A DNA stretch of 64,000 nucleotides from a virus. This document shows, piece after piece, positions 6,225 through 45,949 of the stretch; position 1 is the first letter of the stretch, and every line of letters starts with the position of its first letter. Position numbers and translations under genes: made by a program. Under the pieces are notes generated by a model, which worked only from the letters and a program-made list of their open reading frames with translations, searched no databases and was not told where the DNA came from. The DNA is taken from positions 10,377 to 74,376 of IMG/VR virus record IMGVR_UViG_3300029908_000017. One strand, given 5' to 3'.

Positions 6225-6392
6225 TTATATTTCCAACGCCCTTTCGTCTTTTAAATATATATCATTTTTATTTGGTTTATCTTTGATAATAATAATTGTT
6301 TCTTTTTTCATCTCTCGATTACCATATCTTGAATGCTTGCCTTTATGTTGCCGGAAAGGCATTATGGCTTTTTCCTCAATTTCGAATGGCAT
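6225..6392 (-). CDS. 55-aa microprotein ending IYLKDERALEI (not in the ORF track)
   Basis: Manual translation. Its last 11 residues are identical to those of ORF 45159-45500 but use different codons. Confidence 0.65.
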   Translation of the reverse strand: MPFEIEEKAIMPFRQHKGKHSRYGNREMKKETIIIIKDKPNKNDIYLKDERALEI

Positions 6393-6434
6393 TTTCTTCA
6401 ATTTCGAATTGTTCCTGTAATGTCATAATAAATC

Positions 6435-6459
6435 TGTCGAACGGGTTGGACGTTCGACA
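6435..6459 (-). other. Stem-loop after the putative SSB gene (mRNA stabiliser or weak terminator)
   Basis: Perfect 9-bp inverted repeat TGTCGAACG-N7-CGTTCGACA. Confidence 0.55.
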
Positions 6460-6466
6460 ATCCTAA

Positions 6467-7555
6467 TTATTTCTTAGCTTCTAGAAAAGCACGAAGATCA
6501 TCCTTATTGACGACCTTTCCACCGACAATAACCTCATTGGTTGCTGCTGGTGTTACTGAAATCACCGATGCTACAGGCGCGGGCGGGACAGGAGGATTGA
6601 ATGCTATTGCTGGGGCTACTGTTGGAGAAGCCGCAGGAGGTGCAGGAATAGTATAGGCTCCTGTATTTGTTGGTGTGGAGGCAGGTAAAGGCAGGGGTAC
6701 ACTTACAGTAGGCGCAGGAGGTGTAGGCAATGGATTAGTTGGAAAAGCTGCCACTGTTTTAAATCCTGCATAACCCTCCATACAAATATCGAAAACATTA
6801 GCTGGAAACATCTGGCGTAAGTCTCCAATAATTTCTTCTTTCATCTTTATCACAAATATTTCGTCGAGATTATAAAGATTTTCCGACAATGCGTATTGTT
6901 CGGGAATTACATATTTATAAGCAATATTTGGAGAAATCTGCCATCCCCCATCCTTACCTACATCTGAATTTAACTTTAGAAATGTTCCAATCGCTGCGTT
7001 TACATCATTAAGCAACGGACTTTGTGACCCATCAGGTTGGGGTTGGTCCATCCATTTCGTTAATTGATCTGCACCTTTGTAAGCAGGTAAGTCCAATACA
7101 TGGATTACCTCTTTTAAAGGTGCAGCGGCCTGCAACAACTTTAAAGGAGCTACATTAAAAGCAACTCGTTGTGTTACATGTCCGTAATTTGGATAAATAG
7201 TAAACTTTGTTGAATTATTTCCTTCTCCAGGTTTGACAGGTTTTGCTTGCTCTGGATACCTTGCACGAAACGCTCGTTCAAAATAACTAGCAGGATCGTC
7301 ATTTAAATTATGTACATAATAATTTTTCTTCGCCTTGTCCAGACCAAACGCCTTACGAACAGAAAATGACTTGAACCATACTCCTTCTCCATTGCTATCG
7401 GCTTTGTAAGCAGGTAAAAATAACACGTACAGTCCTTCACGGTTATTGTCCTTATCAAATACTAGTTGTTTAACATCTGTGCGAATATAATTGAATAACG
7501 ATGCTTGATCGATATTCGATCCTTCAAATTTTCGGCTTCCTTGTATAATTGGCAT
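6467..7555 (-). CDS. Putative ssDNA-binding protein (gp32-like) with Pro/Ala-rich tail
   Basis: Lies upstream of the recombinase; VLFLPAY and aromatic-rich core; low-complexity C-terminus. The assignment rests mainly on context. Confidence 0.45.
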   Translation of the reverse strand: MPIIQGSRKFEGSNIDQASLFNYIRTDVKQLVFDKDNNREGLYVLFLPAYKADSNGEGVWFKSFSVRKAFGLDKAKKNYYVHNLNDDPASYFERAFRARYPEQAKPVKPGEGNNSTKFTIYPNYGHVTQRVAFNVAPLKLLQAAAPLKEVIHVLDLPAYKGADQLTKWMDQPQPDGSQSPLLNDVNAAIGTFLKLNSDVGKDGGWQISPNIAYKYVIPEQYALSENLYNLDEIFVIKMKEEIIGDLRQMFPANVFDICMEGYAGFKTVAAFPTNPLPTPPAPTVSVPLPLPASTPTNTGAYTIPAPPAASPTVAPAIAFNPPVPPAPVASVISVTPAATNEVIVGGKVVNKDDLRAFLEAKK

Positions 7556-7562
7556 ATTTTAT

Positions 7563-7844
7563 TTATTGATTGGCTTCAAAAAGATTCTGAAACCATATAT
7601 ATTTTGGGTTTATTTTTTTACGTATGTTTAATGACTCAGCTACTTTAAAATAATTATCGTATTCAATACTTAATTTTTTTAGTGTTTTTAATTTTGGTGA
7701 TTTTTTAACTTTTTCGAATGAAACACGGTTAATATCCCATTCTTCATAGTGTAAGTCAACCTTTGAGAAAATCTTTTTTAAAGTTTTATCCAACAAAGCT
7801 TCTACGGCTCTTACATTATGCTTTGATAGATTTTTTATGTTCAC
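7563..7844 (-). CDS. Hypothetical basic protein
   Basis: 93-aa ORF translationally coupled to the ThiF gene. Confidence 0.55.
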   Translation of the reverse strand: MNIKNLSKHNVRAVEALLDKTLKKIFSKVDLHYEEWDINRVSFEKVKKSPKLKTLKKLSIEYDNYFKVAESLNIRKKINPKYIWFQNLFEANQ

Positions 7845-8449
7845 AAATGAAAGACCTTTTCCTTCGTAACAAGATTTCCTCTTACGGCCTGTAAAAACAC
7901 TTGAACCATTGCAGCACCCACAATGACAGGCATAGCATGCGAAATATTATTTTGTTTTTCATAATCAAGCAGACAACTTCCTCGTTCTGTTGAATCATCC
8001 AAATAAGAATTTCGAATGTCTGCTGGTACCTTGGAGTTGAAAATCAATCCTAGATTGGAACTACTTCGTCCATCAATCCAAAATAACTCAGGATGACTAT
8101 CACCATATTCATAAAGTTTTTTACGAATTTCCATACCATCGGGACCACTAAGGATTACATCATAATTCTTGAAATCTTTCTTTTCCATGAACCTGTCAAT
8201 TGCAGTAATGGCGTACTTGTCTTCCATCACTTTGACTTTCTTTTTACCGAGATCTTCGAATTTATAATTTTGGTGCAATAAATTCTTGTCCGTAACTGAC
8301 GCTTCATCGAAAACTGTGATTTCAGTATTCAAATAATCGAATTGCTTGCGATTATAACCAAAGTCATAAAGAAAATGAATGACCCATCCTGAAACACCAC
8401 CCGCCCCAATAATACCGATTCTTTTATAATTCAATTTTTCAATGCTCAT
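7841..8449 (-). CDS. E1/ThiF-family adenylyltransferase
   Basis: GIIGAGGVSG nucleotide loop, D-x3-V-x3-NLLHQ, DLGKKKV, D-x4-R, WIDG, and a single Cys in RGSCL. Confidence 0.88.
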   Translation of the reverse strand: MSIEKLNYKRIGIIGAGGVSGWVIHFLYDFGYNRKQFDYLNTEITVFDEASVTDKNLLHQNYKFEDLGKKKVKVMEDKYAITAIDRFMEKKDFKNYDVILSGPDGMEIRKKLYEYGDSHPELFWIDGRSSSNLGLIFNSKVPADIRNSYLDDSTERGSCLLDYEKQNNISHAMPVIVGAAMVQVFLQAVRGNLVTKEKVFHL

Positions 8450-8894
8450 TTTTTCTCCAGATTACTTCACTTTGAATTGTATCGTTGTCTAACCAAGTAT
8501 ATTTAATTATTTCTCCGTACTTAATACTCTTAATATAATTGTATTTAAAATTCTGAAATAAATTTGCATAGTCAATTCCAGAATACCTAGCAGAGAATGA
8601 TGGGTGTGTATGGAATGAACCGAATAATTGCCAACCTCTACTAAGAAATGGTCCTACTAATTTGGCGAATTCATTATCATTTGGCTCATATAAAGCGTGT
8701 CCAATACTTTGGTTATGAAACTTATTAGGAATTCTCACAAAGGCAAACACGTCGTCATCGTCAACTTTACCTTTAACGAGTAGTCCACCTGCTTCGTATT
8801 CCAAATCATTAAAGTCCGTTAAATTAATAATTGTTGTGTCAGGGCTGTCCCACACGTCCATAACATGAGGTAATTTGTTAAATTGTGAGATCAT
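8439..8894 (-). CDS. JAB/MPN+ metallopeptidase
   Basis: EAGGLL catalytic Glu plus FHTHPSFSARYSGID (HxH-x7-S-x2-D). Confidence 0.88.
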   Translation of the reverse strand: MISQFNKLPHVMDVWDSPDTTIINLTDFNDLEYEAGGLLVKGKVDDDDVFAFVRIPNKFHNQSIGHALYEPNDNEFAKLVGPFLSRGWQLFGSFHTHPSFSARYSGIDYANLFQNFKYNYIKSIKYGEIIKYTWLDNDTIQSEVIWRKNEH

Positions 8895-9447
8895 GTATTA
8901 TTGCAACGATGTTAGCATCAATAAAATCAGATTCAATATTGTTTGGTACTTTGATGTCGAAGTATTTTTCCAAATTTTCTAATAGAATATTTTTACCCAA
9001 ATTATTAAAGCTGGTCTTATCGTTGAATAATACTTCTTCAAACTGAATTATTCTTTTCAACTGATATTTTATCGATAACAACTGTAGTCGAAGATTGTAT
9101 TTATCAACATTATGCCAAATCAGTTTAGTAATATTGTGCTCATTTATTTTACTCAACAATTCTACATAAACACGTTCCTCATTATCATCAGTGATTGAAA
9201 TGCGAGACCATGTAAGTAGTCCGGTTCTTTGATCAATAATTTTTACAAAGCCTTTTACACCCTTCAACTTGGTTGTAAATGTATGGTTGCCCACGTCGGC
9301 CAACCATTTTTCTTCTTTGTCTTTGATGTCTTTTTCTTTTTTAATTGGATCAGTAAGCCTACCATCGGCTTTAAAGTCAGGTATCCATTTTAACAATTCT
9401 TCCCCTTGAAGGGGAGTAAACTCTAATTTTATAGCAGCTATACTCAT
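8878..9447 (-). CDS. Hypothetical protein, possibly a degenerate DEDD 3'-5' exonuclease fold
   Basis: IKLEFTP and LIWHNVDKYNL sit where DIETxP and LVxFNGxxFD would be; the catalytic Asp residues are missing. Confidence 0.35.
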   Translation of the reverse strand: MSIAAIKLEFTPLQGEELLKWIPDFKADGRLTDPIKKEKDIKDKEEKWLADVGNHTFTTKLKGVKGFVKIIDQRTGLLTWSRISITDDNEERVYVELLSKINEHNITKLIWHNVDKYNLRLQLLSIKYQLKRIIQFEEVLFNDKTSFNNLGKNILLENLEKYFDIKVPNNIESDFIDANIVAIIHDLTI

Positions 9448-9449
9448 AA

Positions 9450-9656
9450 TTAATCTAATTCAGTTGTTTTTTCGTATCCTCGAAGAATTGCAGTCTGTAC
9501 ATAATAATCGTAAAATCTGACAGTCTGATCCTCATATAATTGGTCTGCCACATCTAATGCATCATCTTCATTTCGCCACGCTTCTTTGACTATAATTTCA
9601 CCCTCACTATCTTCTTGCAGCACCAGATAAATATATGTTTCGTTATTTATACTCAT
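9450..9656 (-). CDS. Small acidic hypothetical protein
   Basis: 68-aa ORF with ATGA coupling. Confidence 0.55.
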   Translation of the reverse strand: MSINNETYIYLVLQEDSEGEIIVKEAWRNEDDALDVADQLYEDQTVRFYDYYVQTAILRGYEKTTELD

Positions 9657-11842
9657 GCAACGGCTACCTCTTGAATTTCTGGAATATTAGCAACTTCTTG
9701 TGCGATATCTTTTAATTCTTGATCAAGATTATCATTGATAACCGGTTCATTTGTATCTTCTACATCAACAGTTTCAAAATCCTGGTCAATAGGAGTTTCT
9801 TTGACATAATGCTTTAGGGTATAAATTTCGTCAACCAATACCGAGTCATTATGCAACGCATACAATCTAGCCGCGAGATCATCATAACCTACACCTGTAT
9901 CATGGCTTGAATTGACAATGCAAATATAACCCTGGCTAGCTTCGTCAAATACTTTGCAATTTTCTTTATTCACAATATAGGTTGTCAGCTTGCCTTTGAT
10001 ACGGTAAAACTCTTTACCATCTTTTTTGATCAACTCCGCGCCTGTAGCTTCTACAGCCATTTTTAAGAATTCTTTAGATTTCTCAACCGCTAATGCGTGC
10101 TTTAAGTCTAAATAATCAACAACCGCAATAAGATCAAAATCTGTCAAATGCTCGGTAACTACTTCTTTTTCGATTTCAACCCCATCAGCATTCTTTTCTT
10201 TAACAATCTTCTTAAAGGTAGACGCTTCTTTTAGAATTGGCTTTAATTTGCTTCTTGCCCATTTATCTGTTTTTGTCTCTCCGTTACACCAATTAGCATT
10301 TGCCGATTTATTTAAAGCATATACTTTTTTGATTAAATAATTTAATCTAACAGGTACTGTCTTCTCGATATTATCAATAGAGTTAATAACAAGATGTGGC
10401 TTTCTATCCACAATTCTAAAGAACAATTTAGTGCATTCAGGATGAGGTAAGGGATCTGCCCAACTACCAACATAATCCTTGTCAATTTTTACACCTAGTC
10501 CTGCACTAATTGCATCCGTGGCCTTTAAATTCAAGACTGAAGTTTGTTTAAGGAAATTTGTGTAATTCAACTCGTCTTGAAAACACGAACAACGATAAAT
10601 AACTTCTTCTAACTCATTGGCATTGATACGAATACCATTGATCTTACGATGACCGCTTGCCAAGTGCTTAGTCAACGTTAATGTAATTCCATTAATCTTG
10701 AACGACTCCAATGTAATTACACCATCCGTATACGCGGATTCGTCAGCAATTTCAAAAGTCTTAGGTACATTCACTTCTTCTTGGACCCTCGCGCTTCTCC
10801 TCCATCCATATCCGTACTTACGAATTTTCTTAATCTGCCGTACTTCTTTCTTTAATCCCGCACTCTCAAGTTCAGCCGCTTTGGCTTTCGCAATTTCACG
10901 GACAACTGAATAGATATCAAATTGATTATGAATATCATAAACACCCATAAATATTTCAAATAGCTTAGGATATTCGAGAGTAACAGTATGATAAACAGCC
11001 GAATTAGCTGTGAACTTAATATTGTTAAACTCACCAGATTCCACTTCACCAGACGCTAGTTTATTAGCATAGACTAATGTAGTATTAGCATTGTATTCTC
11101 CTTCAAGGACAGCTAACCGAGTTTTCCAAATAGTTTTCTGGTCTTTTGTCAGTCCCTTCTCCATCTTTAAGCGATACAATACACTCTTTTCAGGATTAAT
11201 AAAGAATCCATGATCCAACATATCTACGAATCTTGAATTAAATCGTAGAAGATGAAAAACTAATAGAATTTCATAAGTAAAAACATTTGCAACGGCGTAT
11301 TTACTAATCAATTTATTTTTCTCATGATACTGGTATACCTGAAAAAGATTATATTGATCGAGATAATCATATACTTTGTCCATGTGTGAGGCCATGAACT
11401 TGATAAACCTTCGACCATTTACAATACGATAAGTTGTACCATTTACAATTTTTTCGATAGGTGCCTGCATGATAACCAATGGCCCATCACTATCATCAAC
11501 AGATTGTCGAGTGTAATATTTTGAATTTGTGATCTTATCACGAATTGCTCCATAACTACTATCAGTTACTAACTCATAATTATCGTTGCAAAAAGAATCC
11601 TCAAAATCATTGTCAGGCCAATTTGAGGTACCGCGAATTGCTTGATAATTTAATTTAAACAACGAATGTAGCGTAGGTAAATTTTCTATATAAAAATCCT
11701 GTACTTTAAAATAGAAATTAATATCCTTGTTCTGTTCTTCCCAAGCCAATTCAAAATCTATTTTAACCTTCTTTAACTTTAATAATAGATTTTTTAATTT
11801 TACCAAATATTGTTTATTTAACTGCGAGTGATAAAATGCCAT
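9653..11842 (-). CDS. 729-aa protein of unknown function in the Ubl cassette
   Basis: Long ORF with a C-terminal RIKGKLTTYIV...YICIV...DDLAARLYALHND segment. Confidence 0.8.
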   Translation of the reverse strand: MAFYHSQLNKQYLVKLKNLLLKLKKVKIDFELAWEEQNKDINFYFKVQDFYIENLPTLHSLFKLNYQAIRGTSNWPDNDFEDSFCNDNYELVTDSSYGAIRDKITNSKYYTRQSVDDSDGPLVIMQAPIEKIVNGTTYRIVNGRRFIKFMASHMDKVYDYLDQYNLFQVYQYHEKNKLISKYAVANVFTYEILLVFHLLRFNSRFVDMLDHGFFINPEKSVLYRLKMEKGLTKDQKTIWKTRLAVLEGEYNANTTLVYANKLASGEVESGEFNNIKFTANSAVYHTVTLEYPKLFEIFMGVYDIHNQFDIYSVVREIAKAKAAELESAGLKKEVRQIKKIRKYGYGWRRSARVQEEVNVPKTFEIADESAYTDGVITLESFKINGITLTLTKHLASGHRKINGIRINANELEEVIYRCSCFQDELNYTNFLKQTSVLNLKATDAISAGLGVKIDKDYVGSWADPLPHPECTKLFFRIVDRKPHLVINSIDNIEKTVPVRLNYLIKKVYALNKSANANWCNGETKTDKWARSKLKPILKEASTFKKIVKEKNADGVEIEKEVVTEHLTDFDLIAVVDYLDLKHALAVEKSKEFLKMAVEATGAELIKKDGKEFYRIKGKLTTYIVNKENCKVFDEASQGYICIVNSSHDTGVGYDDLAARLYALHNDSVLVDEIYTLKHYVKETPIDQDFETVDVEDTNEPVINDNLDQELKDIAQEVANIPEIQEVAVA

Positions 11843-11874
11843 AAAAAAGCCCGTTGGTGTTTAATCCAACGGGC
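11843..11874 (-). terminator. Intrinsic terminator/attenuator after the Ubl gene
   Basis: GCCCGTTGG-N8-CCAACGGGC followed by T6 on the minus strand, abutting the next ATG. Confidence 0.8.
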
Positions 11875-11893
11875 ATCTCCGTTTATTGATTAA

Positions 11894-12247
11894 TTAACCA
11901 CCGATGACTCGTCCAACGATTTGTACAGGAGGAGTAATGAATTTACCTGGAAAGGCAATATCTACTTTTGTCAGAGAAGACAGCAAATCACGTAACCGTA
12001 ACTTATCGCTTTCAATAATCTTGTTATCGTCATCCGTACCATTAAACTTAGCAGATGTCTTAAAGATTCCATCGTTAATCACAGCCCAAAGCTTGTTGGT
12101 CTGGAAATGACTAAAGATACGTTCAACGGCTCCTTCTAAGTTTAGTTTAAAAGTTTCATGTCCGGCTTTACCAGTAACATGCAAATCGTAAACAGGTGCG
12201 TTCAAATCTAAAGCTACTTCTGCAATTGTATTTTTGATTTCTTCCAT
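11894..12247 (-). CDS. Divergent ubiquitin-like (beta-grasp) protein with C-terminal diglycine
   Basis: 117 aa ending in the strand-like VQIVGRVIGG*; lies upstream of the JAB and E1 genes. Confidence 0.7.
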   Translation of the reverse strand: MEEIKNTIAEVALDLNAPVYDLHVTGKAGHETFKLNLEGAVERIFSHFQTNKLWAVINDGIFKTSAKFNGTDDDNKIIESDKLRLRDLLSSLTKVDIAFPGKFITPPVQIVGRVIGG

Positions 12248-12249
12248 AA

Positions 12250-12768
12250 TTAAACAGTTTGGGCTACCTCGTGATCTTCGTTGATAGCCAAAGAGAATCC
12301 AGACAAATCCTCGCTAGCGTTATTTAGATTCAATCTTGAATTAAACGTAATTTTTGCACCGGATTTCTGCAGAATCTTTACCAACGAGGCAAGAAAGAAA
12401 CGAGGATGAGTAAGCTGCTTTACTCGTACTTCTGCCTTTACCTCGTAACCCTCGCTAATATTAACTACTAGCTCTTTGGGAGCTTCTACAGGTTGATTAT
12501 CAACGACTACTTGAATTGGCTGTTTTGAATTTGCCTTTGTTTTAGTAGCAGTACCTTTCTTTGATTTTGCAGTTGTTGGTTTTGCAGTTGTAGTAGATTT
12601 AACAACATTCTTATCCGCTCCCTCTACTTCAAGGGTAGCCCAATTCTTGGAAATATTATTCGCATAAGTTGAGGAATAACCTTTCTTGATCAAATACGCA
12701 GACACACCTTTCTTCTGCCGCTTGATCTTCAATAATTCGTCGTAAAGTGCTTTTTTAATTTTAGCCAT
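12250..12768 (-). CDS. Lys/Thr-rich hypothetical protein (possibly DNA-binding)
   Basis: Basic N-terminus and a low-complexity linker rich in K, T and A. Confidence 0.6.
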   Translation of the reverse strand: MAKIKKALYDELLKIKRQKKGVSAYLIKKGYSSTYANNISKNWATLEVEGADKNVVKSTTTAKPTTAKSKKGTATKTKANSKQPIQVVVDNQPVEAPKELVVNISEGYEVKAEVRVKQLTHPRFFLASLVKILQKSGAKITFNSRLNLNNASEDLSGFSLAINEDHEVAQTV

Positions 12769-13037
12769 AATAGTTTAGTAAGTTTTCTTGTATGCTGCGA
12801 GTGTCTTTTCGATATTTTGCTGTGAATAACCCTGAAGAAGTAGATAAGACCGTAGACCCTTTTTTGCGAGACGTACTTTATCCAATTCTTTAACTAACGT
12901 TTTATTTATTTTCATATGTTTATTTCTATTCTGTTACTACTACTGCCATGCACTTCAATCCCAAAAAGCTACCCAATAACAAAAGCGCAATTGCTGAAAT
13001 TGTTTTTAGGGCTTTGATGGTTATCAGTACATAATCT

Positions 13038-16000: not shown

Positions 16001-17583
16001 CATTAAGCTTAGCTTCTTCAACAGCAATTTTTTTATTTTGTTCATATTCAATCGCTTCTGCCTCTGTATCGAATAATGAATCATCGAATGTCTTATATTT
16101 TTTTATTTCTGTAATCATACATCTTCTATGAAAAATGATTTAATATCTTTACGGTTCGGTGACCATTGCCAATATATGTCAGCTTCATCGAAGATTTTTT
16201 CTACAGTACCTTCGTTGTCTTGTATACCATGATACCTAAAGTTAAAAGAAGATTGACATAAAACTAAGTTCCAAGTTTCAGCTGCATAATTTCTAAACCA
16301 CCAAACAGATGGAAATTCATCACTCCACATTGTCCGACACTTTGGTTTTGGTTTAATTCGGTATATATGATTTTCAAAATCCCAAATACCACTCTTTACT
16401 TCATACCAGTTGGACGCTCGTGTTATATCTTCAATTTTCCAATGGGCTTCAATTGACTTTCCATCTTCAAAAGCTTGTATCACTTCTATTATTTCTTTGT
16501 TTGTCATATTTTTTATATTTAGGTAAATCTGGCCATGCATCTACTAGATCATCGAACCGATAACCATCATCGATATTTAGTTCAAAGATTTTTGAAAAAT
16601 CATTAACATTGAATTTTCGTAATTTTTCGTAGCGATGATATCCAATGTATAGATCTGCTACATAGTGGTCATCTCCATATGTATCTCTGACCATCAAAGA
16701 TGATGTAAGGGTTTTCATAGAAACTTACTCCGTGTCATGCCATTCCTTACCTCTCGATTCGTCGAGTCCCTGGATGTAGCCCTTGTTGTTTGCCCACTGT
16801 TGAAGCTTGTCGAGAATGGCTATGGCTTTCGGCATGTCGCCAAGGTACAAAGCCGTGGAAACCTCTTGAGCAATCGTCGCAAGTTGTTCCTTGTCCTTCA
16901 TTGGTGATGATCCCCGTTTAATATTGTGATTGTGTGCATTATTATACTCCTTTGCTATATCTCTTTAATGTTTCGAAAGAAACGATTTTGAATGGTCTGG
17001 AAAATAAGAAATTTGCATATCTCTCGGACTGTTCATCAGGTACATAATTTTTATTTCTAACGAGTTTTAAAACTATATCTTTTTCAGGTACCATGTATTC
17101 CATTTTGTAAATTATACTTTCTGTTTATGATGGTTTTTAAGCTATTCAGAAACTTTAGTTTGTGTATTGATAGGCTCTACTGCCTCTAGTTTATCTTCGT
17201 ACCAATCCATATTGTATATAGTAAAAGGAAAGTCATGATCAATTATTCCTTCTTCTAACAACGTTTGCGCTTTGTCGTAAGCTGATTCTCCTGAATCTAC
17301 TTCAACCTCAAACTCTATAACTTGCTCCCAACGCCTAGTTACAATTGCCTTGTATTTCATGTGATTACTATCGAGTTATATTTATTGTTACCTCACCAGT
17401 AGTATCATTAACATGACAATATTCTCCGTATAACAACAACAGGTAATGTGCATAACTATTATTATAAAGTATTTTTTCTACTTGGTCGTAAGGTAAGTTA
17501 AATTCAATTTTACCTTTGTTATTTATATGTACATTTGAACTTCGTACAAGATATTCCATGCTAATTTTGCCACACCCATTCAT
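13038..17583 (-). CDS. Cluster of about 12 small accessory hypothetical genes
   Basis: Tightly coupled ORFs of 58-220 aa, including 15095-15757 with the widespread phage motif LMDHSGLSI...WDSGQVG. Confidence 0.6.
13979..14563 (-). CDS. DUF2934-like domain protein (start moved to MKIEKG)
   Basis: RAYYYWENAGRPEGRSEEFYYQA motif; ATGA overlap with the upstream gene. Confidence 0.65.
   Translation of the reverse strand: MKIEKGIALNTYIEIESQVVEVRAYYYWENAGRPEGRSEEFYYQALNDLFEETTIKIANSISNTDEDELINWQAEIRNDDEDSTWYEDIELLLPEIKQHNFRNVGHKISWLFNSLKNIKNPKTVVSRKVEDENITVVIDEDLTPQEVTTPIEEISVAKINNHLDLPPAKLSDNQLNDLYAVDQFAPVPLIPIGV
16725..16901 (-). CDS. 58-aa GC-rich microprotein (not in the ORF track)
   Basis: MKDKEQLATIAQEVSTALYLGDMPKAIAILDKLQQWANNKGYIQGLDESRGKEWHDTE*; fills a gap between genes. 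Confidence 0.65.
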   Translation of the reverse strand: MKDKEQLATIAQEVSTALYLGDMPKAIAILDKLQQWANNKGYIQGLDESRGKEWHDTE

Positions 17584-21489: not shown

Positions 21490-21490
21490 A

Positions 21491-32456: not shown

Positions 32457-32906
32457 TAATTTTTAATACTTTAGCAGGTATATTAATACTTACATGACTA
32501 GGGTTAATTACATCGATAAACGCAGCATCATGATCAGCACTAAGTTGAGGCTTTAATACTTTATTCGTAGAAACTCTAAGTAACGTACAGCCACTCTCAT
32601 CATCCACATAAATATTATTACCTACAATTCGCAATTGACTAACTTTAATATTCATCTTTTATATATTCATAATTGGTATCAAAATCAATTTTATCCAATC
32701 GTGAAGCATCAAATCGTATTTTTGCTTTATGTACTCTATCTGTATTGCCTTTGTAAATATAAATCAATACAGCTGTTGCAATATCACCTGATTCAAAAAT
32801 AATTTTATCTTCCGGAACCAACAATCGGTCAGATGGTGGTTCATCTAGCCCAATAAAATAGTCATGGAGAAATTTACGTATCACTGCTTTACTTTGCATA
32901 AATTAC

Positions 32907-33287
32907 TTAGTTAAGACAAAATTCAATAATTCCTTCATCCGTAGTATTGATTTCGTATTCCAATTCCTCTTCTTCAAAATATGCCTTGGTCAATTCAAAA
33001 CTATATCGTTGTTTCAAACTATCCAGATTTTCACCAAGTTGTTGCGCAATTGAAGAATCATAAAAATCCCCATAAATTTTATATTCACCATCAATAAGGT
33101 TGATACCCAAATCGTAACCATCCTGAGGATTGACTGCTACGTAATCATAAATCGTTTCTCTAGCTGGATCATTACGATATGTACGTGCTTTAGTTTTTTC
33201 TACAATTCGCCAGCCGAAATTTTCCAATGATTTATCCAATAATTGGAAATTACTAATATTTGTTTTTATTTCAACGGTGTGACTCAT
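32907..33287 (-). CDS. DUF1257/Ycf35-like protein
   Basis: MSHTVEIKT start, YDLG, D-F-Y and LKQRY. Confidence 0.78.
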   Translation of the reverse strand: MSHTVEIKTNISNFQLLDKSLENFGWRIVEKTKARTYRNDPARETIYDYVAVNPQDGYDLGINLIDGEYKIYGDFYDSSIAQQLGENLDSLKQRYSFELTKAYFEEEELEYEINTTDEGIIEFCLN

Positions 33288-33851
33288 TTTTTTATATTTT
33301 AATTTTTGTTAAATCTTTTGTAATAATCTCAACATATTCAATATTGAGTTTATCAAAAGCATCTTGAATACATAAAAGTATATCATATTTTGAATAAGTG
33401 GATATTTCATTATTCTCAAATGATTGCATTTTAATTAAATCATTTTCAACATTAATAATATCTCCCTTTATTACTTCACATAAAGGGAGATTATCAATCA
33501 GTACTACATCATTCTTATCATAGATTCGAAGGATGTCAAATTGGTTAGGGTAAGCACAGTCAACAGACATATCAGGATAATTTAATTTCAACTTGTTTAT
33601 TATAAACCCTAGTAAAGCTTGCATCGTCCAACGCGCTATACATAGCTTCACTTACACATAACAATTTCTCTGAGGCTACCTCAAGCAATAACAAATTATT
33701 ACCATCATTATTCTCCCTATCCGGATAAGATAAAGATATATAATAGTGCTCAGAATTACCATCAACTTGTTGATATATACCCGGTTCACTTAATACATCA
33801 TTTAAATCAATAAAAGATTTATCTTCTTTTACAATAATTTCTATATTCATA

Positions 33852-34964
33852 TTATATTTCCAATGCTCGAAGATATTCTCCAGTAATTGAAGATATATCT
33901 GAAGTATTTTCAGCTACAGTTTTAACATCTAACAAGAATTCTTTTAAAGCATTTCGGTCATCGACATTATCTTTACTTTTCAGATCTCGGTTTTCTGCAA
34001 GAAACGTCTGTACTTCTGTGATACGTTCTTCTAACACTTTGTCACCAAAGATATTCAATTTTTCAAAATCTTGTATCTTTTTTAACAACGTGTTCTTATT
34101 AACATCAGAAACAACGTCGCCTTTATTAATTTTATTAATAATTACAGCAAAAACACTATTTACACTTTCACGCAATTCTTTGATTGAGTTATCGACAAAA
34201 TTGGTAATTTGTTCCAACTGTTTTGCAGCTTGTTGGTTATAATGTTCCTTGGCTTCGTTAACAGTGGCAGCAACTTGAGCTTCTTCTTCCAATAATACCC
34301 GAATATTAACCTCTTGTAGCTCGTTAGGCATATTAATACGGAATTCGGAATATTCGAAATTAAACTTTCCACGTATCTCATTTACTGATGGGTATGCCGG
34401 TCGTAGAACATCTGCATATTCTGGATAAGCCGCAAGTGCTTCTGTTTTATATTGCTCGTAATTCTCTACAAACGAATCAACAAGAATATTAAATTCTTCC
34501 TTATAGGTCTCTAATTGTTTACGTACCTCTTCCAGATTATGAAAAGCTACAAAATGTGCTTCCGCAATAGGAAAGCGATTACTCATTCGCTTAAGATACA
34601 ATCTAGCACGTTGTTCAATTTGAGCAAATTGATTAAACAATACTGGTTTAACCAGCATCTTTTTGCCAAGTTTAATAATATCTGGGACTTTTTCAATTTC
34701 CAGGTCCGATTCTTTTAATGAAGTAGACATACTCCACCTTGAAATATGAATAGATATTAGTACACCTGTACTAAACAACTTATCATAGTAACGATCAAGA
34801 ACTCGGATTTGATTGTGATTTTCCAATTCCTCAACTAATTGTTGCCCTCGTTGGTTTACAGGGGTGTCCAGAACCTCTGTAACACTTATTGATTCTTCCG
34901 ATTGTTCCAATATATCAATATTAGAATCCACTAACTCTTCGATAACTTTCTTATGTCTTCCCAT
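33852..34964 (-). CDS. DUF3150-like helical protein
   Basis: GVLISIHISRW, LGKKMLV, YPS..EIRGKFNF and long helices; ends RALEI. Confidence 0.6.
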   Translation of the reverse strand: MGRHKKVIEELVDSNIDILEQSEESISVTEVLDTPVNQRGQQLVEELENHNQIRVLDRYYDKLFSTGVLISIHISRWSMSTSLKESDLEIEKVPDIIKLGKKMLVKPVLFNQFAQIEQRARLYLKRMSNRFPIAEAHFVAFHNLEEVRKQLETYKEEFNILVDSFVENYEQYKTEALAAYPEYADVLRPAYPSVNEIRGKFNFEYSEFRINMPNELQEVNIRVLLEEEAQVAATVNEAKEHYNQQAAKQLEQITNFVDNSIKELRESVNSVFAVIINKINKGDVVSDVNKNTLLKKIQDFEKLNIFGDKVLEERITEVQTFLAENRDLKSKDNVDDRNALKEFLLDVKTVAENTSDISSITGEYLRALEI

Positions 34965-34966
34965 AT

Positions 34967-36535
34967 TTATTTAACCTCAATTAATTCACCTTTGTTATTC
35001 AATGTATACCAAGTATTAGCTTTAATACCATCTTCTCCTGCATAACCGACAACTATACGATTACGGTTACCGTCATCCCAAACCAAAGATAAGCAACCAT
35101 TTTCTCCGACTTTTGTTTTTCCATACAATCCTGCCACAACTGCAATAGTATCTTTACCAACAGCTGCTGCTGTGCTGTAATATCCTGAACTCGCTGCTTT
35201 GCTGGAATTACCTGAACTCTCTGCTTTGCTGTAATCTCCTGAACTCGCTGCTGTGCTGTAATCTCCTGAACTCGCTGCTGTGCTGGAATCTCCTGAACTC
35301 GCTGCTTTGCTGTAATCTCCTGAACTCGCTGCTGTGCTGTAATCTCCTGAACTCGCTGCTTTGCTGGAATTACCTGAACTCACTGCTGTGCTGGAATCTC
35401 CTGAACTCGCTGCTTTGCTGGAATCTCCTGAACTCGCTGTTTTGCTGTAATATCCTGAACTCACTGCTTTGCTGGAATATCCTGAACTCGCTGCTTTGCT
35501 GTAATCTCCTGAACTCGCTGTTTTGCTGGAATTACCTGAACTCACTGCTTTGCTGTAATCTCCTGAACTCGCTGCTGTGCTGGAATTACCTGAACTCGCT
35601 GCTTTGCTGTAATCTCCTGAACTCGCTGCTGTGCTGTAATATCCTGAACTCGCTGCTTTGCTGTAATCTCCTGAACTCGCTGTTTTGCTGGAATCTCCTG
35701 AACTCGCTGCTGTGCTGGAATTACCTGAACTCACTGCTTTGCTGTAATCTCCTGAACTCGCTGCTGTGCTGGAATTACCTGAACTCGCTGCTTTGCTGTA
35801 ATCTCCTGAACTCGCTGCTTTGCTGTAATCTCCTGAACTCGCTGCTTTGCTGTAATCTCCTGAACTCGCTGCTGTGCTGGAATCTCCTGAACTCGCTGCT
35901 GTGCTGGAATCTCCTGAACTCGCTGTTTTGCTGGAATCTCCTGAACTCGCTGCTGTGCTGGAATTACCTGAACTCACTGCTTTGCTGTAATCTCCTGAAC
36001 TCGCTGCTTTGCTGTAATCTCCTGAACTCGCTGCTGTGCTGTAATATCCTGAACTCGCTGCTTTGCTGTAATCTCCTGAACTCGCTGTTTTGCTGGAATC
36101 AAGTTTTTTAACTTTTAAAATTAAATCGTTAACCTGTTTATCAATTTTTGTTTTATTGCAAAACAAGCGAGCAATTAATTCTGGTGTTGCGTCGTTTAAT
36201 TCCCAAACTTTATTCAATACATCTGAATACTGTGGTTCGGAAAAATAATCTAAGGCTACCTCCTTACCCTTTAAAGCGTTCATTAAACTTGTATAATGTG
36301 ACGTAATGGAAGAAACTTGGTGTTGTGTTAATGTAGAAATATCATCGTTCTTAACAACATTTTCCAAAACGAAATCACCAATCCCATTCCATTCGCATTC
36401 AACAAATCTTTTTTGTTTATGAACACTATCGTTTTCTGTCCATTTAAACAATTCAACAGCCTTACTATGGCTATTACCAGGTTCATGGGCTATAACTCCA
36501 TCACGTCTAACAACAATACTATGAAAATCACACAT
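34967..36535 (-). CDS. Repeat protein with 34 nine-residue SSGDYSKAA-type repeats (start probably MCDFHS)
   Basis: In-frame 27-nt repeats; C-terminal cap GEDGIKANTWYTL typical of phage repeat proteins. Confidence 0.85.
   Translation of the reverse strand: MCDFHSIVVRRDGVIAHEPGNSHSKAVELFKWTENDSVHKQKRFVECEWNGIGDFVLENVVKNDDISTLTQHQVSSITSHYTSLMNALKGKEVALDYFSEPQYSDVLNKVWELNDATPELIARLFCNKTKIDKQVNDLILKVKKLDSSKTASSGDYSKAASSGYYSTAASSGDYSKAASSGDYSKAVSSGNSSTAASSGDSSKTASSGDSSTAASSGDSSTAASSGDYSKAASSGDYSKAASSGDYSKAASSGNSSTAASSGDYSKAVSSGNSSTAASSGDSSKTASSGDYSKAASSGYYSTAASSGDYSKAASSGNSSTAASSGDYSKAVSSGNSSKTASSGDYSKAASSGYSSKAVSSGYYSKTASSGDSSKAASSGDSSTAVSSGNSSKAASSGDYSTAASSGDYSKAASSGDSSTAASSGDYSTAASSGDYSKAESSGNSSKAASSGYYSTAAAVGKDTIAVVAGLYGKTKVGENGCLSLVWDDGNRNRIVVGYAGEDGIKANTWYTLNNKGELIEVK
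35166..36100 (-). repeat. 27-nt coding tandem repeat, about 34-35 copies
   Basis: Consensus AGTTCAGGAGATTACAGCAAAGCAGCG; 34 SSG units counted in the translation. Confidence 0.97.
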
Positions 36536-36941
36536 AATTTTAATATTCCAATTCAATAACTATTTCACCACTAGGTCTTGTCCATTCCAGATTACTGTAC
36601 CTAACCAAATTTGCGCAGCGATATTCAATTTCAGCTTCTCTCGCTACGAATACAACGTCTTTATCAAGTATATCTTTGCGATTTTCCAATATTTGAATTA
36701 TTAATTCTCTATAAGTCATAATTTTATAGATCAATATCTTTTTTAAAATCGTAAACAATAACATTGTCAGGTAATGATTCTTCCTGAAAATAACCTACTT
36801 CTATCAATGTATGCTGTGCTTTTTGCAGTACACGTGATTCTACATTTGTAGGATCTTTCACCTTTAAAACTAATGTATAGATATCAAACAAAGCATATAG
36901 CATTTCTGAATATTCACGACTTCTCAATTTTTCAAAATAAC

Positions 36942-38537
36942 TCATATCTCCATACTTCTTAAAATAGTTTCCGAGTTTTCAATAATTTCACCATCTTTTC
37001 CAGCAATTTGTAACTTACCTTTTGCGGAATCTCTCATACTTTTTAAACGTTCTGGATACATCTCAGCGTTAGGCTTGAATCTTTTAATCTCTGCTAACAA
37101 ATCTTCTTCTAATACTTCTCGGCTATCATGATAGAAAGCACGAAACAAAGCAGATTTGATTAGTTCTTCAATCTCCGAGCCAATATAATTGTTTGTTAAT
37201 TTAGCTAATTTTTTTAAACTAAACTTTTCAGGATCACGATTATATTTTATCAATAGCTTTTTAAATATATCCTCACGTTCTTCTAAATCAGGCAGGTCTA
37301 CCCAAAAAGCAGCATCGAATCGACCCGGACGTAATAAGGCAGGAGGTAGAATTAAATGATTGTTACAGGTACCGATAAAGAATGGTGCAGAATCATTCCC
37401 ACGATCTGCCAAATACGTCAGAAACGCTCCAAGCATTCGTGAGCCTACACCCGAATCACCAATACCCGATGTAGCGTTTGAACTCAATGACTTTTCAATT
37501 TCATCAATCAAAACCACACATTTGCCTATCGATTCAATGGTCTGTAAGACTTGTCGTAAGTTGCGTTCAGAATCTCCTACATGAGAAGAAAACAACTTCC
37601 CAATATCCAATAAAAATAAAGGTACTTTAAATTCTGTAGAAATAGCACGAGCGGTAATGCTCTTACCACCACCAGGAATACCACAAAGAATTATACCACG
37701 AGGAGTACAAAGACCATATTCTTTTGCTTCTTTACTAAATGCCCGTTTTCTAAGATTGACCCAATTCTTTAGACCTTCAAATCCACCAATATTATCAAAA
37801 CTAATGCCCGTTTCAATGTATTCTAATAAACTATTCTTTTTAATTTGAGTTATCTTTTCATTAAAAACAATCTTTATAAACTCGTCATTGAACTCACCCT
37901 TCGTACAAACAAAGGCAAAGGCCAAAGCAGACTCTACTTCGTTATTAGCCATACCTTTACAGGCTTCAATAACGTTCTCAATAAAATCTTCGTCTAATTT
38001 TGCTTCTGGTTTATTTTTGGCTTTTCTAGAAACGTTGGCACTGATTAATGTGTCATTAAACTTTTCACGTATTGCTTTTTTATCAGGTAACTCATATTCC
38101 ACTATCTGAATTTCCTTTTCTAACTCCAAAGGGATATTGAAATTTGGAGAAATAAAAATCAAGGTGTTGCCATCTCTTCGTAAATAACTACTGAGATTAC
38201 GTAAACACCGAATATAATCTTTTGATTTCATCTTACTATCCATCTCTAGATGGAAGTCAAGAAGAACGTAAGCACTTCGTTTTTCGTTACGGCCTGCTGA
38301 GTTAAGAAGAAATTCAAATAACTTATTTGGGTCATCCGTACCTTTAATTATATTGCCGTCTTTATTCAAGTCTACTAAACCAGTAATACAATCCCAGCGA
38401 TAAAAGGTGCCGAACTTCTCACGTTTAGGCAATATCGTTAGTAGGTCATTGGTAACACGTTTTTCTTCATGTGTATTGATTACCAGCATTGGATAACTGG
38501 CTTTTGCGTAATTTAATATTTTATCGTTAAAATTCAT
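36942..38537 (-). CDS. Ycf46-like AAA+ ATPase
   Basis: Degenerate N-terminal AAA (THEEKR, LLDFH), IGGFEGLKNW, GIPGGGKS, IDEIEK and LLRPGRFD. Confidence 0.9.
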   Translation of the reverse strand: MNFNDKILNYAKASYPMLVINTHEEKRVTNDLLTILPKREKFGTFYRWDCITGLVDLNKDGNIIKGTDDPNKLFEFLLNSAGRNEKRSAYVLLDFHLEMDSKMKSKDYIRCLRNLSSYLRRDGNTLIFISPNFNIPLELEKEIQIVEYELPDKKAIREKFNDTLISANVSRKAKNKPEAKLDEDFIENVIEACKGMANNEVESALAFAFVCTKGEFNDEFIKIVFNEKITQIKKNSLLEYIETGISFDNIGGFEGLKNWVNLRKRAFSKEAKEYGLCTPRGIILCGIPGGGKSITARAISTEFKVPLFLLDIGKLFSSHVGDSERNLRQVLQTIESIGKCVVLIDEIEKSLSSNATSGIGDSGVGSRMLGAFLTYLADRGNDSAPFFIGTCNNHLILPPALLRPGRFDAAFWVDLPDLEEREDIFKKLLIKYNRDPEKFSLKKLAKLTNNYIGSEIEELIKSALFRAFYHDSREVLEEDLLAEIKRFKPNAEMYPERLKSMRDSAKGKLQIAGKDGEIIENSETILRSMEI

Positions 38538-42278: not shown

Positions 42279-42281
42279 TCA

Positions 42282-43233: not shown

Positions 43234-43248
43234 TTTGTCTCCTTTGTT

Positions 43249-43797
43249 TTAGGGTTCCATTTTACCAACATATTCGATCACATAATTGATATGATAATCG
43301 AATAATTCCTGTAAAGCTTGATTCTTGTCCGTGTCATCCGAAGGATTACATTTTGGTAGAATCGCCGAAGAAAACAATTCGGGAGCTTTACTAAAACCAA
43401 AATCATAGAAAATTTTACCAACGTATAAATTAATATCGGATGAAAACTCTAGAGCTTCATGTCTTATTAAATAATATTCAGCCAAAGATTTGATAATTTC
43501 TTCTATCTGTAAAGGAGAAACTATATCACCATCGGCAGGAACATTAGAAAGAATATGCCCACATGTCTCGTAGACATTCCAATTCGTCGCGAAATTATTA
43601 GATGTTAATACTTCTATCGCTGCATTTAATTTATCGACTTGTAAATCTTCCAAGGTTATAGCGTAATCCCGTTCAATTTCATCCCTAATCAATTGGTTGT
43701 CCCATTCCAAAGCTTCGGGGCCGTAATTACGTAGAAAAGCTATTAACAACGCAATTGGAGGAGCATTGATATCTGTATATATTTGAGCAGTAAGCAT
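43249..43797 (-). CDS. Hypothetical acidic helical protein
   Basis: 182-aa ORF. Confidence 0.65.
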   Translation of the reverse strand: MLTAQIYTDINAPPIALLIAFLRNYGPEALEWDNQLIRDEIERDYAITLEDLQVDKLNAAIEVLTSNNFATNWNVYETCGHILSNVPADGDIVSPLQIEEIIKSLAEYYLIRHEALEFSSDINLYVGKIFYDFGFSKAPELFSSAILPKCNPSDDTDKNQALQELFDYHINYVIEYVGKMEP

Positions 43798-43829
43798 TAA
43801 TTAATTTTAGTTATTAAAATGATGATTGT

Positions 43830-44777
43830 CTAGTTTACTGTTGATTCATTCAAACTAAGACCACTAGGCAAATCAGGTAACTCTCTCCAATATATAGGAT
43901 CTTCTCCTGAGTCCGTATAACGGGTGTTATCAGGTGTCACCCATCCTTTATAAGATGGATCACATTGACCTGTCATAAATTCAAATGGAGTGGAGTAATG
44001 TCCACTATCACGCACGGTTAGAACCCATTTTTTAAGGTCAGGTAATTTTACTTTAACGCTTATCCACCCGTATTGAATGTCAGTCATTTACACTTCTCCT
44101 CTTCCATCAGCCCTTCGCCTTCGGTGATGGTAATTTCCTTAACGGCGGTTACTTTATAACCAGGAAATGAAAATTTCAAAGCTTCTTCTCGTGAAGCATA
44201 TGGTCCGTGGATTTCAATATTTCCTAATCCCCTACCAATAATCTCGATAATCCAACAAGTTCGCTTCACCGGCTCTTTTTTGAGTAGAAATAAATCTAAC
44301 GTGCTTTCAACATTCTTCCAAAGAATCCCTTCCTCAGATACAAACTTGGGCGAGATTTCATTTTCAGGTAAAAAAACAACACGAAAATATTCTAGGGCTT
44401 TAGTAAAATGTGCCATTTGCATGACCTTCCCTCCATCTCTAGTCCTCACCCATTCAGGATGTTTGAGGACTTCTTCAAGTGGCTCGTCTGTGAAGGGGCG
44501 CAGACCGTATGGTATATCTTTTAATTTATTTTTGTTCATATCAATTCTCGTCTTCAATTCCTAATAAAGCACGTACAACTTCTTCATGTTCTCCCCAATT
44601 ATCGAAACGCTCATGACCCATGCAATTATCTCCTGAATCTCTTTGAGGGGCTATTCCCGATCCCTTGCATACACAGCATTTCCGAGTTTTCCATTTTCCT
44701 CCACAGGTTGGACAAAGTTTGCTGCTCATTGAGGTGGAGTAACCGGAGCTATTTTCTTCGTTCATAGTTATAACCAT
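43830..44777 (-). CDS. Three accessory genes (DUF551-like 43830-44087; 44084-44557; Zn-ribbon 44541-44777)
   Basis: WISVKVKLP..W.ELP motif; CPTCGG..CCVCKGSG motif. Confidence 0.6.
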
Positions 44778-45181
44778 TCCTGAAATTGGCTCTGCATATT
44801 TGAATAAAACAATTTTTTAAACCCTAACTTTTGTAATAATGAAGCACAACCTGAACACGGCTTACTATTATTCAACTTTCCATTTCGATCAATACGAATA
44901 TTTACAAAAGTAATATCCGAACAATCTTCTCTACCATATTTTAATACACACGACATTTCACTATGCGTACCAGTGGTGTTACCAATATGTACATTTTGAC
45001 GGTTTACATACCTATATTTTAAGTTCTTAGTATTAGTTTTTGAAGAGTTGACTCCAATCGAAACAACTCTGTTTTTTCGTAACATGAATGTTACATGGTG
45101 ATTCCGAATATCTTCTCTAGGATTTGGAGCCAACGCCCTGGCGATTTCCACAAGTTTATTAAATTTCGAGTGCCCGTTCAT
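44768..45181 (-). CDS. Cytidine/dCMP deaminase-fold protein
   Basis: SIGVN, HSE and SKPCSGC Zn-binding motifs. Confidence 0.82.
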   Translation of the reverse strand: MNGHSKFNKLVEIARALAPNPREDIRNHHVTFMLRKNRVVSIGVNSSKTNTKNLKYRYVNRQNVHIGNTTGTHSEMSCVLKYGREDCSDITFVNIRIDRNGKLNNSKPCSGCASLLQKLGFKKLFYSNMQSQFQEWL

Positions 45182-45500
45182 CTTTTAGATATATATTTTT
45201 ATCGGTTTTTATAGGTATAGAATTTTCAGCTTGTTCAGGAATTTCTTGTAATGTAGACATTAACTTTTTATAAATACTGGCAACCTGCTTTTGAGTAAGT
45301 CCCAGACTTACCGAATCGGCTATATTCGCTCGACTAAATGCACCAAAATTAGAATATTGGCGTAAATTGCTGGCTAACCCTGTCCCTGTGTATGCAATGG
45401 TTGTTTGATCTTTATCTAACCCTTGGTCTGCCCCAATAAATAAAGGATCATCATCAAAATATTGATTCCCTCTTACTCCAATGGGGTAGGAGATGGTCAT
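45159..45500 (-). CDS. Hypothetical protein ending IYLKDERALEI
   Basis: 113-aa ORF with the shared C-terminal motif. Confidence 0.65.
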   Translation of the reverse strand: MTISYPIGVRGNQYFDDDPLFIGADQGLDKDQTTIAYTGTGLASNLRQYSNFGAFSRANIADSVSLGLTQKQVASIYKKLMSTLQEIPEQAENSIPIKTDKNIYLKDERALEI

Positions 45501-45949
45501 ATTTCCAAGTCCCTTTCATACTTTAAATACAACGACTTATCTACTTTTTTTGTAATAGTTTTTACATTAATAGCAGTAGGTAACGAAGGAGAAACATTAA
45601 GAGAAGTTATAGGAGATGTATTCTCCGAAGTATTATGACCCAATAAACGCAAAAAATTATTGTCCATAGTGGCACGTATTTGATCTGAATATGCATTTCC
45701 AATAATCCGTTGTGCCTCAACATTGGCTAATGCCAACTGATTGATTATAGATATACGCTCTCCATATTCTCGATCAATTACTTCAAGATCATTGCTTGAA
45801 AATTGTGATCTCGCGTAGTCTATTAAATCTGGCTGATTTTCTCGATAATCGTCGTTATAAAGAAAATCACGTAACGTAGATTTCGGTACATGAACAAGCT
45901 TCGTACCTTTAAACGGTTTTACCGGGCATCTAGAAAGACCTGTTAGCAT
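45497..45949 (-). CDS. Hypothetical protein ending LYLKYERDLEI
   Basis: 150-aa ORF; N-terminal PFKGTKLVHVP is weakly DUF3820-like. Confidence 0.65.
   Translation of the reverse strand: MLTGLSRCPVKPFKGTKLVHVPKSTLRDFLYNDDYRENQPDLIDYARSQFSSNDLEVIDREYGERISIINQLALANVEAQRIIGNAYSDQIRATMDNNFLRLLGHNTSENTSPITSLNVSPSLPTAINVKTITKKVDKSLYLKYERDLEI

Follow-up and report, generated by a model that had tools for sequence, protein, structure and literature searches.

The window analysed here is a stretch of 64,000 nucleotides from the virus record IMGVR_UViG_3300029908_000017 (positions 10,377 to 74,376), a phage record of 74,376 bp with a guanine-plus-cytosine content of 35% in which the minus strand bears nearly all genes. 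The same sequence was recovered from peat metagenomes. The window encodes a Ycf46/Cdc48-like AAA+ ATPase, a DUF3150-like helical protein and several smaller partner proteins, referred to together as the module, as well as three small proteins of 150, 113 and 55 (or 58) amino acids (Table 1). The ATPase, the DUF3150-like protein and the three small proteins share a C-terminal peptide, the tail, of the form R-x-[LM]-E-I, as in KNDIYLKDERALEI. These five C-termini, all encoded on the minus strand, had been listed in an initial annotation made from the sequence without database searches, and translation bore them out. We report here that the tail is a real, C-terminus-specific motif under selection at the protein level, that it occurs on non-homologous proteins across many phages, and that its residues change together within genomes.

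Table 1. Tails, tail-bearing proteins, module members and related features of the window (aa, amino acids; ORF, open reading frame)
Feature	Coordinates	Strand	Remarks
Tail IYLKDERALEI	6228-6260	minus	microprotein 6225-6392 (ATG) or 6225-6401 (TTG)
Tail IYLKDERALEI	45162-45194	minus	ORF 45159-45500
Tail LYLKYERDLEI	45500-45532	minus	ORF 45497-45949
Tail EYLRALEI	33855-33878	minus	DUF3150-like protein
Tail ILRSMEI	36945-36965	minus	AAA+ ATPase
Predicted microprotein, 55 aa (ATG 6392) or 58 aa (TTG 6401), ends IYLKDERALEI	6225-6401	minus	directly upstream of RecA/UvsX-like gene 5021-6223
113-aa orphan carrier, ends IYLKDERALEI	45159-45500	minus	tail dual-coded with deaminase start
150-aa carrier: QSregVF_b-like N-terminal ~55 aa, S/T/P/N-rich linker, tail LYLKYERDLEI	45497-45949	minus	translation
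dCMP deaminase gene	44768-45181	minus	Pfam dCMP_cyt_deam_1
Ycf46/Cdc48-like AAA+ ATPase, 531 aa	36942-38537	minus	Pfam AAA E 8e-26 and AAA_lid_3; phrog_8638 E 1e-113
Loop IKGTDD, residues 64-69 (G66) of ATPase N-terminal domain	38331-38348	minus	candidate contact for tail position +3
DUF3150-like helical protein, 370 aa, ends GEYLRALEI	33852-34964	minus	Pfam DUF3150 (PF11348)
p100 homologue	33292-33651	minus	module member, without tail in this phage
DUF1257-like protein	32907-33287	minus	sub-threshold Pfam; without tail in this phage
p90 homologue	32645-32899	minus	module member, without tail in this phage
DUF2997-like protein	32250-32456	minus	sub-threshold Pfam; without tail in this phage
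89-aa protein	32003-32272	minus	module member, without tail in this phage

A pattern search over the whole proteome against a shuffled expectation had been proposed as a check. In the complete 74,376-bp genome, exactly these five proteins matched among 1979 stop-to-stop open reading frames (ORFs) of at least 20 amino acids. Residue shuffling of a 120-gene set gave a mean expectation of 0.021 matches, and none of 20,000 shuffles gave more than two. Only one real gene (29734-30324) contains the motif internally, at residue 51, indicating that the tail is specific to C-termini. When no pattern was imposed, 7 protein pairs had at least four of their last five residues in common (null mean 0.4, maximum 3). 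The remainder of the five proteins is dissimilar, as had been stated: after removal of the last 11 residues no similarity was detected (best BLASTP E 0.49). In the AlphaFold2 (AF2) models of the DUF3150-like protein and the ATPase, the tails are located in low-confidence or flexible regions. Being conserved, more so than its surroundings, and placed in disordered regions of non-homologous proteins, the tail has the sequence properties of a general C-terminal short linear docking motif. It is not an HbYX motif: the proteins end in L-E-I or M-E-I, without a Tyr at the penultimate position.

The microprotein and the 113-amino-acid protein end in the same 11 residues, with 7 of 33 bases differing in 6 of 11 codons. 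Because none of these differences changes a residue, the conservation is at the protein level, in agreement with the initial annotation. The proportions of synonymous (pS) and non-synonymous (pN) differences between the two tails were 0.88 and 0.04, respectively (Nei-Gojobori); synonymous sites are saturated. Across the eight tails of this phage and of its closest full relative (genome G001, syntenic locus L020, 40-65% amino-acid identity), Arg is written with four codons and Leu with four. A point missed by the initial annotation is that the tail of the 113-amino-acid protein overlaps, in another frame, the first 23 nucleotides of the dCMP deaminase gene and is therefore dual-coded, an arrangement likewise kept in G001. 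The deaminase start uses the infrequent codons AAC (23%) and TCG (11% of the codons for their amino acids), which give rise to the tail Arg (CGG) and Leu (CTC) in the other frame.

These observations bear on the idea that the shared sequence is a nucleic-acid signal, namely an element for translational coupling, ribosome binding or promoter activity where genes meet, its reading as R-x-L-E-I being accidental. In every case the start codon of the following gene adjoins or overlaps the tail (GAAATATGA, GAAATATAATATG), which explains some of the bias to ATA-TGA or ATA-TAA endings, and ATA (Ile) and AGG (Arg) are over-used in the tails compared to the genome. However, the residues are unchanged by the base differences, the codons for Arg (AGG, CGG, CGA, AGA) and Leu (TTG, CTC, CTT, TTA) vary freely, and the motif is retained in relatives whose DNA differs greatly. 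An accidental reading of a nucleic-acid signal is thus extremely improbable, and we regard it as effectively excluded. Note that a ribosome-binding site was rejected in its own right, as most genes of the phage have AT-rich upstream regions that lack a Shine-Dalgarno sequence and contain no shared sequence.

Relatives were obtained from IMG/VR in two alignment-based scans, resulting in ~44 loci. A scan of the IMG/VR viral contigs with the single ATPase sequence as query had returned no match, whereas the alignment as query succeeded. No close relative was found among GenBank phages by megablast and tblastn, the matches being AAA homologues at ~29% identity only. Examination of homologues, a further check that had been suggested, showed the tail to be conserved on both the ATPase and DUF3150 in every relative found. 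The ATPase tail reads SLRTIDI at 66% identity and, in many relatives at 41-46% identity, MRKLSI followed by a short acidic extension. Corndog gp96 (29% identity to the ATPase) ends in KVRVLDL, and cellular Ycf46-like ATPases end in R-x-V-x-A-x. DUF3150 orthologues from ~40 phages end in GEYFRKLx[VI], those of closer relatives in GEYFRALE[IV] and that of G001 in GEYLRNLEI. In the 186-amino-acid orthologue of the 150-amino-acid protein in G001, only the N-terminal 61 residues and the tail, KNDRSLEI, are conserved. G001 also has an ORF of 40 amino acids before the deaminase gene that ends in NNDRLLEI.

In a larger, more distant clade, a tail of the form [FMH]-R-K-L-x-[IV] is present at or near the C-terminus of three non-homologous operon proteins: the ATPase, DUF3150 (GEYFRKLx[VI], as above) and a third family of ~120 amino acids (E[HFY]RKLx[IVL]). 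All three bear it in ~40 related IMG/VR phages, where DUF3150 is encoded next to the ATPase. The third family has a mean identity of 31% and a K/P-rich linker before the tail; the Arg of the tail is its sole invariant residue. Profile comparison detected no relation of the family to the 113- and 150-amino-acid proteins of the window; a faint likeness to WGR was seen in 2 of 16 members (E 0.019). In the distant phage L027, whose ATPase is 29% identical, at least seven dissimilar proteins, four of them only 41-59 amino acids long, end in [ND][ND]R[YLH][IV][IM][IV]V (for example N-R-Y-I-I-I-V), where E or G may follow the final V. The respective ORFs lie in 298-2939 and 9772-12879, with the four small ones in a row. 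L027 is thus an independent case of small proteins that bear the tail of the module.

The tails within one genome resemble each other. All carriers in the clade of this phage have R-[not K]-Φ-[E/D]-[IV] (Φ, hydrophobic residue), and all carriers in the other clade have R-K-L-x-[IV]. In this RKL clade, the tails of DUF3150 and the third family shared 44 identical positions, compared to 32 under shuffled pairing; none of 20,000 shuffles reached 44. At tail position +3, 7 matches were observed as against 2.6 under shuffled pairing (p = 0.002). Same-genome pairs of DUF3150 and third-family tails include RKLEV/RKLEV, RNLDV/RLLDV, RKLNV/RRLNI, RKLR/RKLR and RKLEI/RKLDI. The matching residues are specified by unrelated codons (Ser AGT and TCA, Arg CGT and AGA), excluding gene conversion. 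The matched states are spread over several separate lineages of a tree built without the tails, and 3 of 3 phylogenetically independent contrasts agree in direction, a number that cannot reach significance.

The ATPase appears to consist of a D1-like N-terminal tier (residues 1-235), an active AAA tier and a flexible C-terminus that ends in the tail. Its AAA domain has Walker A, Walker B and arginine fingers together with an AAA lid, and G289, G291, K292, D345, E346, R403 and R406 are invariant in the ATPase alignment, identifying it as a classical AAA+ protein of the Ycf46/SpoVK/Vps4 type. R527 is also invariant and I531 nearly so. In the AF2 model the N-terminal tier is well predicted (α/β plus lid), and residues 504-531 have a predicted local distance difference test score (pLDDT) below 50. 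No Walker motifs were detected in the N-terminal tier by Pfam. The nearest PDB structures in Foldseek are the two-tier ATPases p97, Rix7, Drg1 and Pex1/6. The alignment to p97, Rix7 and Drg1 covers ~560-600 columns with an E of 1e-17, but the template modelling (TM) score is only 0.4-0.5, with a model pLDDT of 67. The ATPase gene of G001 (L020 10001-11922) is split into ORFs of 300 and 222 amino acids that are ~350 nucleotides apart, exactly after the Walker A region, and the N- and C-terminal halves are likewise separate in L022, L024, L025, L026 and L029. This split could represent an intron, an intein-less insertion or an assembly break.

The DUF3150-like protein belongs to its family with an E of 6.5e-19 (68.7 bits; cut-off 24.9). 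Its AF2 model (pLDDT 72.6) is a long helical bundle in which the tail forms the terminal helix (residues 357-369, pLDDT ~59); Foldseek returned no PDB match to this model beyond generic helical bundles. The DUF1257-like and DUF2997-like proteins are below the Pfam gathering scores (16.7 against 22.2 bits and 21.5 against 24.1 bits, respectively) and are called 'like' only; the same gene order in related loci, where orthologues of the p100, p90 and 89-amino-acid proteins are likewise found, supports their orthology within phages. A protein of 529 amino acids (34967-36556; phrog_4433 and phrog_27197, no Pfam match) is encoded between the ATPase and DUF3150 genes of the window. The two genes are adjacent in all distant relatives and are separated by three small ORFs in G001. 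A module protein of ~90 amino acids in the distant clade (L001-L029), encoded between DUF1257 and DUF2997 (for example L016 13427-13714), ends in GRFLRNTMxYV, a second, different conserved C-terminal peptide of the operon. Its homologue in the window, the p90 homologue, ends otherwise.

Ycf46-type ATPases with DUF1257, DUF2997 and DUF3150 partners are widespread in large phages, cyanobacteria and plastids. Literature searches on DUF3150, DUF1257, DUF2997, Ycf46, the phage module and the shared tail retrieved no mechanistic work or description.

Regarding the small carriers, the structural neighbours of the 150-amino-acid protein in the ESM Atlas carry PF12843 (QSregVF_b/ExoX-like_C), a weak match. 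In these neighbours, QSregVF_b-like heads accompany exonuclease, Rad52 or RNase H domains. The combination of a weakly matched head, a linker and the tail suggests that the protein may be an adaptor. A homologue search with its ORF returned the protein itself only, and the 113-amino-acid protein had no homologue among 1.8 billion representatives (itself and one weak repeat match). Pfam searches of the small carriers at E up to 10 gave no usable match. A degenerate DNA pattern for Y-L-K-x-E-R-x-L-E-I-stop found a single chance match in IMG/VR, inside an epimerase gene. The predicted microprotein is placed after a terminator-like hairpin (6434-6460, minus strand) and before the RecA-like gene. 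The sequencing runs listed as containing the sequence include none from RNA, and no natural variants for testing its coding constraint were available among the peat metagenome contigs, which are identical to the window over 5800-7000. All three small carriers are encoded outside the module operon and have DNA-metabolism neighbours, being located beside the dCMP deaminase gene or upstream of the RecA/UvsX-like gene. Just downstream of the hairpin, at 6364-6407, a perfect-register 22-nucleotide tandem repeat (91% identical) spans the region in which the microprotein ORF starts and might serve the RecA-like transcription unit as an operator or promoter.

How might the tail act? It is probably a C-terminal docking peptide that tethers its carriers to one shared receptor of the Cdc48-like AAA+ module. 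The initial annotation had tied such a peptide to an AAA/DUF3150/DUF1257/DUF2997 machine, a proposal that is supported by the presence of the tail on the ATPase, DUF3150 and further non-homologous proteins of relatives, by the flexible linkers, and by the concerted change of tails that use unrelated codons. The form [aromatic/aliphatic]...R-x-[L/M]-E-I-COOH would be a short linear motif for docking, placed at the tip of a flexible C-terminal linker and holding the carrier to a receptor among the ATPase, DUF3150, DUF1257-like and DUF2997-like proteins. The ATPase and DUF3150 would be the ancestral carriers. Three small, unrelated early proteins may have gained the extended version [YF]-[LI]-[KN]-x-[DE]-R-x-L-E-I and would thereby have been recruited as adaptors or clients. 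The likeliest receptor would be the N-terminal (D1-like) tier of the ATPase near loop 64-69, in the manner in which the N-domain of ClpX receives the XB peptide of SspB.

This assignment comes from a scan of the other module proteins, in which every well-aligned column was checked for association with the residue class at tail position +3. Among 7368 tests, the strongest association (Fisher p = 8.6e-6) was with a column of the ATPase N-terminal tier, in the loop that directly follows a conserved 'HP'. Where position +3 of the partner tail is neutral, this loop has [ED][ED]T; where position +3 is E, D or N, the loop has EGL, ENL, LHT, GGL, PST or AST. Specifically, it is acidic in 23 genomes with neutral +3 and non-acidic in 14 with acidic or amide +3, with 3 exceptions, amounting to a concordance of 37 of 40 genomes. 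Lineage L044, which was outside the set used to find the column, the phage of the window (KGT, G66) and the P0002 contig fit the association. Since it co-varies with the tail through this loop, the ATPase is the leading receptor candidate, but the loop itself is only a lead drawn from sequence co-variation.

Several points weigh against a shared receptor in the module. We infer from sequence that all tails bind one common receptor, and the structure models used here are of single chains. The loop column was picked from 7368 tests, and its Bonferroni-corrected p is ~0.06. The association fails in G001, L059 and L071; in 4 independent pairs, 0 were in the wrong and 2-3 in the predicted direction, an underpowered comparison with p at least 0.25. 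In the RKL clade the ATPase keeps RKLSI even where the tails of its partners change, with 2-8 further residues behind it; the ATPase tail may therefore bind elsewhere or in cis. As to the small carriers, the base-substitution pattern is the single argument that the predicted microprotein is coding. The 40-amino-acid counterpart of the 113-amino-acid protein in G001 is a poor ORF, and its tail could in part be a by-product of the conserved deaminase N-terminus.

An alternative role is that of a degron or unfolding-initiation tag, in which the phage AAA+ unfoldase, or a host protease such as ClpXP or Lon, would draw the tail into its pore and the carriers would be timed substrates. The position of the tails at the very C-terminus of flexible segments would suit such a role, as would the resemblance of the ATPase to Cdc48-type unfoldases and the forms R-x-Φ-x-Φ and RYIIIV (in L027), which are compatible with an extended strand; the small carriers, as early proteins, could be cleared on schedule. 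However, it would be odd for a degron to mark the unfoldase itself and its operon partner DUF3150 in every phage, the module genes and the other window proteins that were scanned include no recognisable protease, and engagement by a pore, which usually tolerates varied sequences, would predict neither the residue-level matching of carriers nor co-variation with an N-domain loop. We thus consider a degron unlikely. Still less likely is docking to a hub of the host, such as the sliding clamp, SSB, RNA polymerase or a PDZ-type reader, in place of a module protein. L-E-I-COOH does conform to the Φ-x-Φ-COOH ending of class II PDZ-type ligands, all carriers are encoded in the early/DNA-metabolism region, and adaptation to different hosts would also produce concerted tail change. 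But cellular Ycf46-type ATPases end in an R-x-V-x-A-type tail as well, suggesting that the motif predates phage-host adaptation. Moreover, truncated tails (RKLR or RKLA) occur and that of the ATPase runs on for 2-8 residues, contrary to a strict reading of the C-terminal carboxylate; co-variation between the ATPase loop and the tail would not be expected, and scanning the phage proteins revealed no PDZ domain.

The tail might also be a private structural element of each protein (a helix for oligomerisation or capping, for example), with the likeness arising by convergence or from duplicated gene-end remnants without a common receptor. The C-terminal helix of meiotic-clade AAA ATPases aids hexamer assembly, and the tail of DUF3150 is modelled as a helix that continues the bundle. 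Such an origin leaves unexplained why the same motif occurs on the orphan 113-amino-acid protein, the 55-amino-acid microprotein and the QSregVF_b-like protein, why tails of one genome match while differing in codons, and why seven carriers exist in L027; in addition, the tails have low model confidence. We consider this highly unlikely. With a docking peptide of the module as the preferred reading, a bolder version can be formulated, which we put forward tentatively and would not expect to hold in full. The tail may be a portable address code of a previously unrecognised hub for protein remodelling in phages, in which ~10 C-terminal residues would turn any protein, even a 55-amino-acid microprotein or a dual-coded ORF, into a client or adaptor of the ATPase. 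The co-evolving loop of the N-terminal tier would read the tail, and the ATPase's own tail would act as a built-in competitor or autoinhibitor. Such a code would also account for the orphan Ycf46 family of cyanobacteria and plastids.

Replication and recombination genes occupy the left and middle parts of the window and include a UDG-PolA fusion (UDG, uracil-DNA glycosylase), a DnaB-like helicase, an SF2 helicase and SbcCD, along with the RecA/UvsX-like protein, the dCMP deaminase and a ThiF/JAB/Ubl cassette (Ubl, ubiquitin-like). Structural genes begin after ~51 kb. The fusion is a single ORF of 922 amino acids (17561-20329) that joins a uracil-DNA-glycosylase-superfamily domain (residues 17-133) to a family A DNA polymerase domain (residues 647-901). 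The phage-borne ubiquitin-like cassette (7841-12247) comprises ThiF/E1 (7841-8449) and Prok-JAB (8439-8894), both confirmed by Pfam, a 117-amino-acid protein ending in VIGG and a 729-amino-acid protein without Pfam match. Its presence in one genome with a Cdc48-like ATPase recalls a Ubl-unfoldase pathway. No link between the cassette and the C-terminal tail was found. We also rejected the idea that the phage Ubl system targets the conserved Lys of YLK, since this Lys is missing from one of the two small-carrier tails of G001 and from the DUF3150 and ATPase tails.

Most likely, the tail lets all carriers plug into a common docking site on an unstudied machine for protein remodelling. Its presence on the motor, the partners and additional small proteins provides a direct experimental handle on a Ycf46-type machine. 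In each phage, the genes whose products bear a tail predict clients or adaptors of the machine; here they point to the DNA-metabolism neighbours. A shared terminal motif may also allow microproteins and overlapping ORFs to be recognised as real genes.

Similar uses of C-terminal peptides are known from other AAA+ systems. The XB sequence of SspB ends in LRVVK, which is also Φ-R-x-Φ-x. As proposed for the phage tails, SspB is an adaptor whose extreme C-terminal peptide, following a flexible linker, tethers it to the N-terminal domain of its AAA+ partner, a hexamer, at a site for which other proteins compete. Through its last 10 residues SspB occupies the N-domain of ClpX, to the exclusion of other clients (PMC3983244). 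The phage ATPase is not ClpX, as judged by Pfam and Foldseek, and the analogy is one of mechanism only; the ATPase appears to be of a two-tier Cdc48/Ycf46 type, it lacks a zinc-binding N-domain and the module a ClpP partner, the ATPase itself bears the tail, and the receptor is putative.

The tails of proteasome activators are HbYX in PAN, Rpt and Cdc48, and GQYL in mycobacterial Mpa, an AAA ATPase, and in Bpa/PafE. As proposed for the phage, an AAA+ ATPase and an unrelated non-ATPase protein there dock into one receptor by the same extreme C-terminal peptide. In contrast, the phage motif is R-x-L-E-I without penultimate Tyr, and is found on more carrier families, including microproteins; neither a 20S-like ring nor a protease was detected among the phage proteins scanned. 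p97/Cdc48, which with Rix7 and Drg1 are the closest structural relatives of the phage ATPase, likewise combine a flexible tail at the C-terminus with a number of small partners of their own. Their tail binds PUB or PUL domains, and cofactors dock on the N domain. The phage system differs in having no UBX, PUB or PUL domains, in its N-terminal region, which appears to be a D1-like tier and lacks a p97-type N domain, and in that motor and partners carry the same peptide. The Ycf46/Ycf35 (DUF1257)/DUF2997 set of cyanobacteria and plastids shares with the phage module a homologous ATPase, DUF1257-like and DUF2997-like partners and, in the cellular ATPases, an R-x-V-x-A-type tail; the phage module differs in its additional DUF3150 protein and further carriers of the tail.

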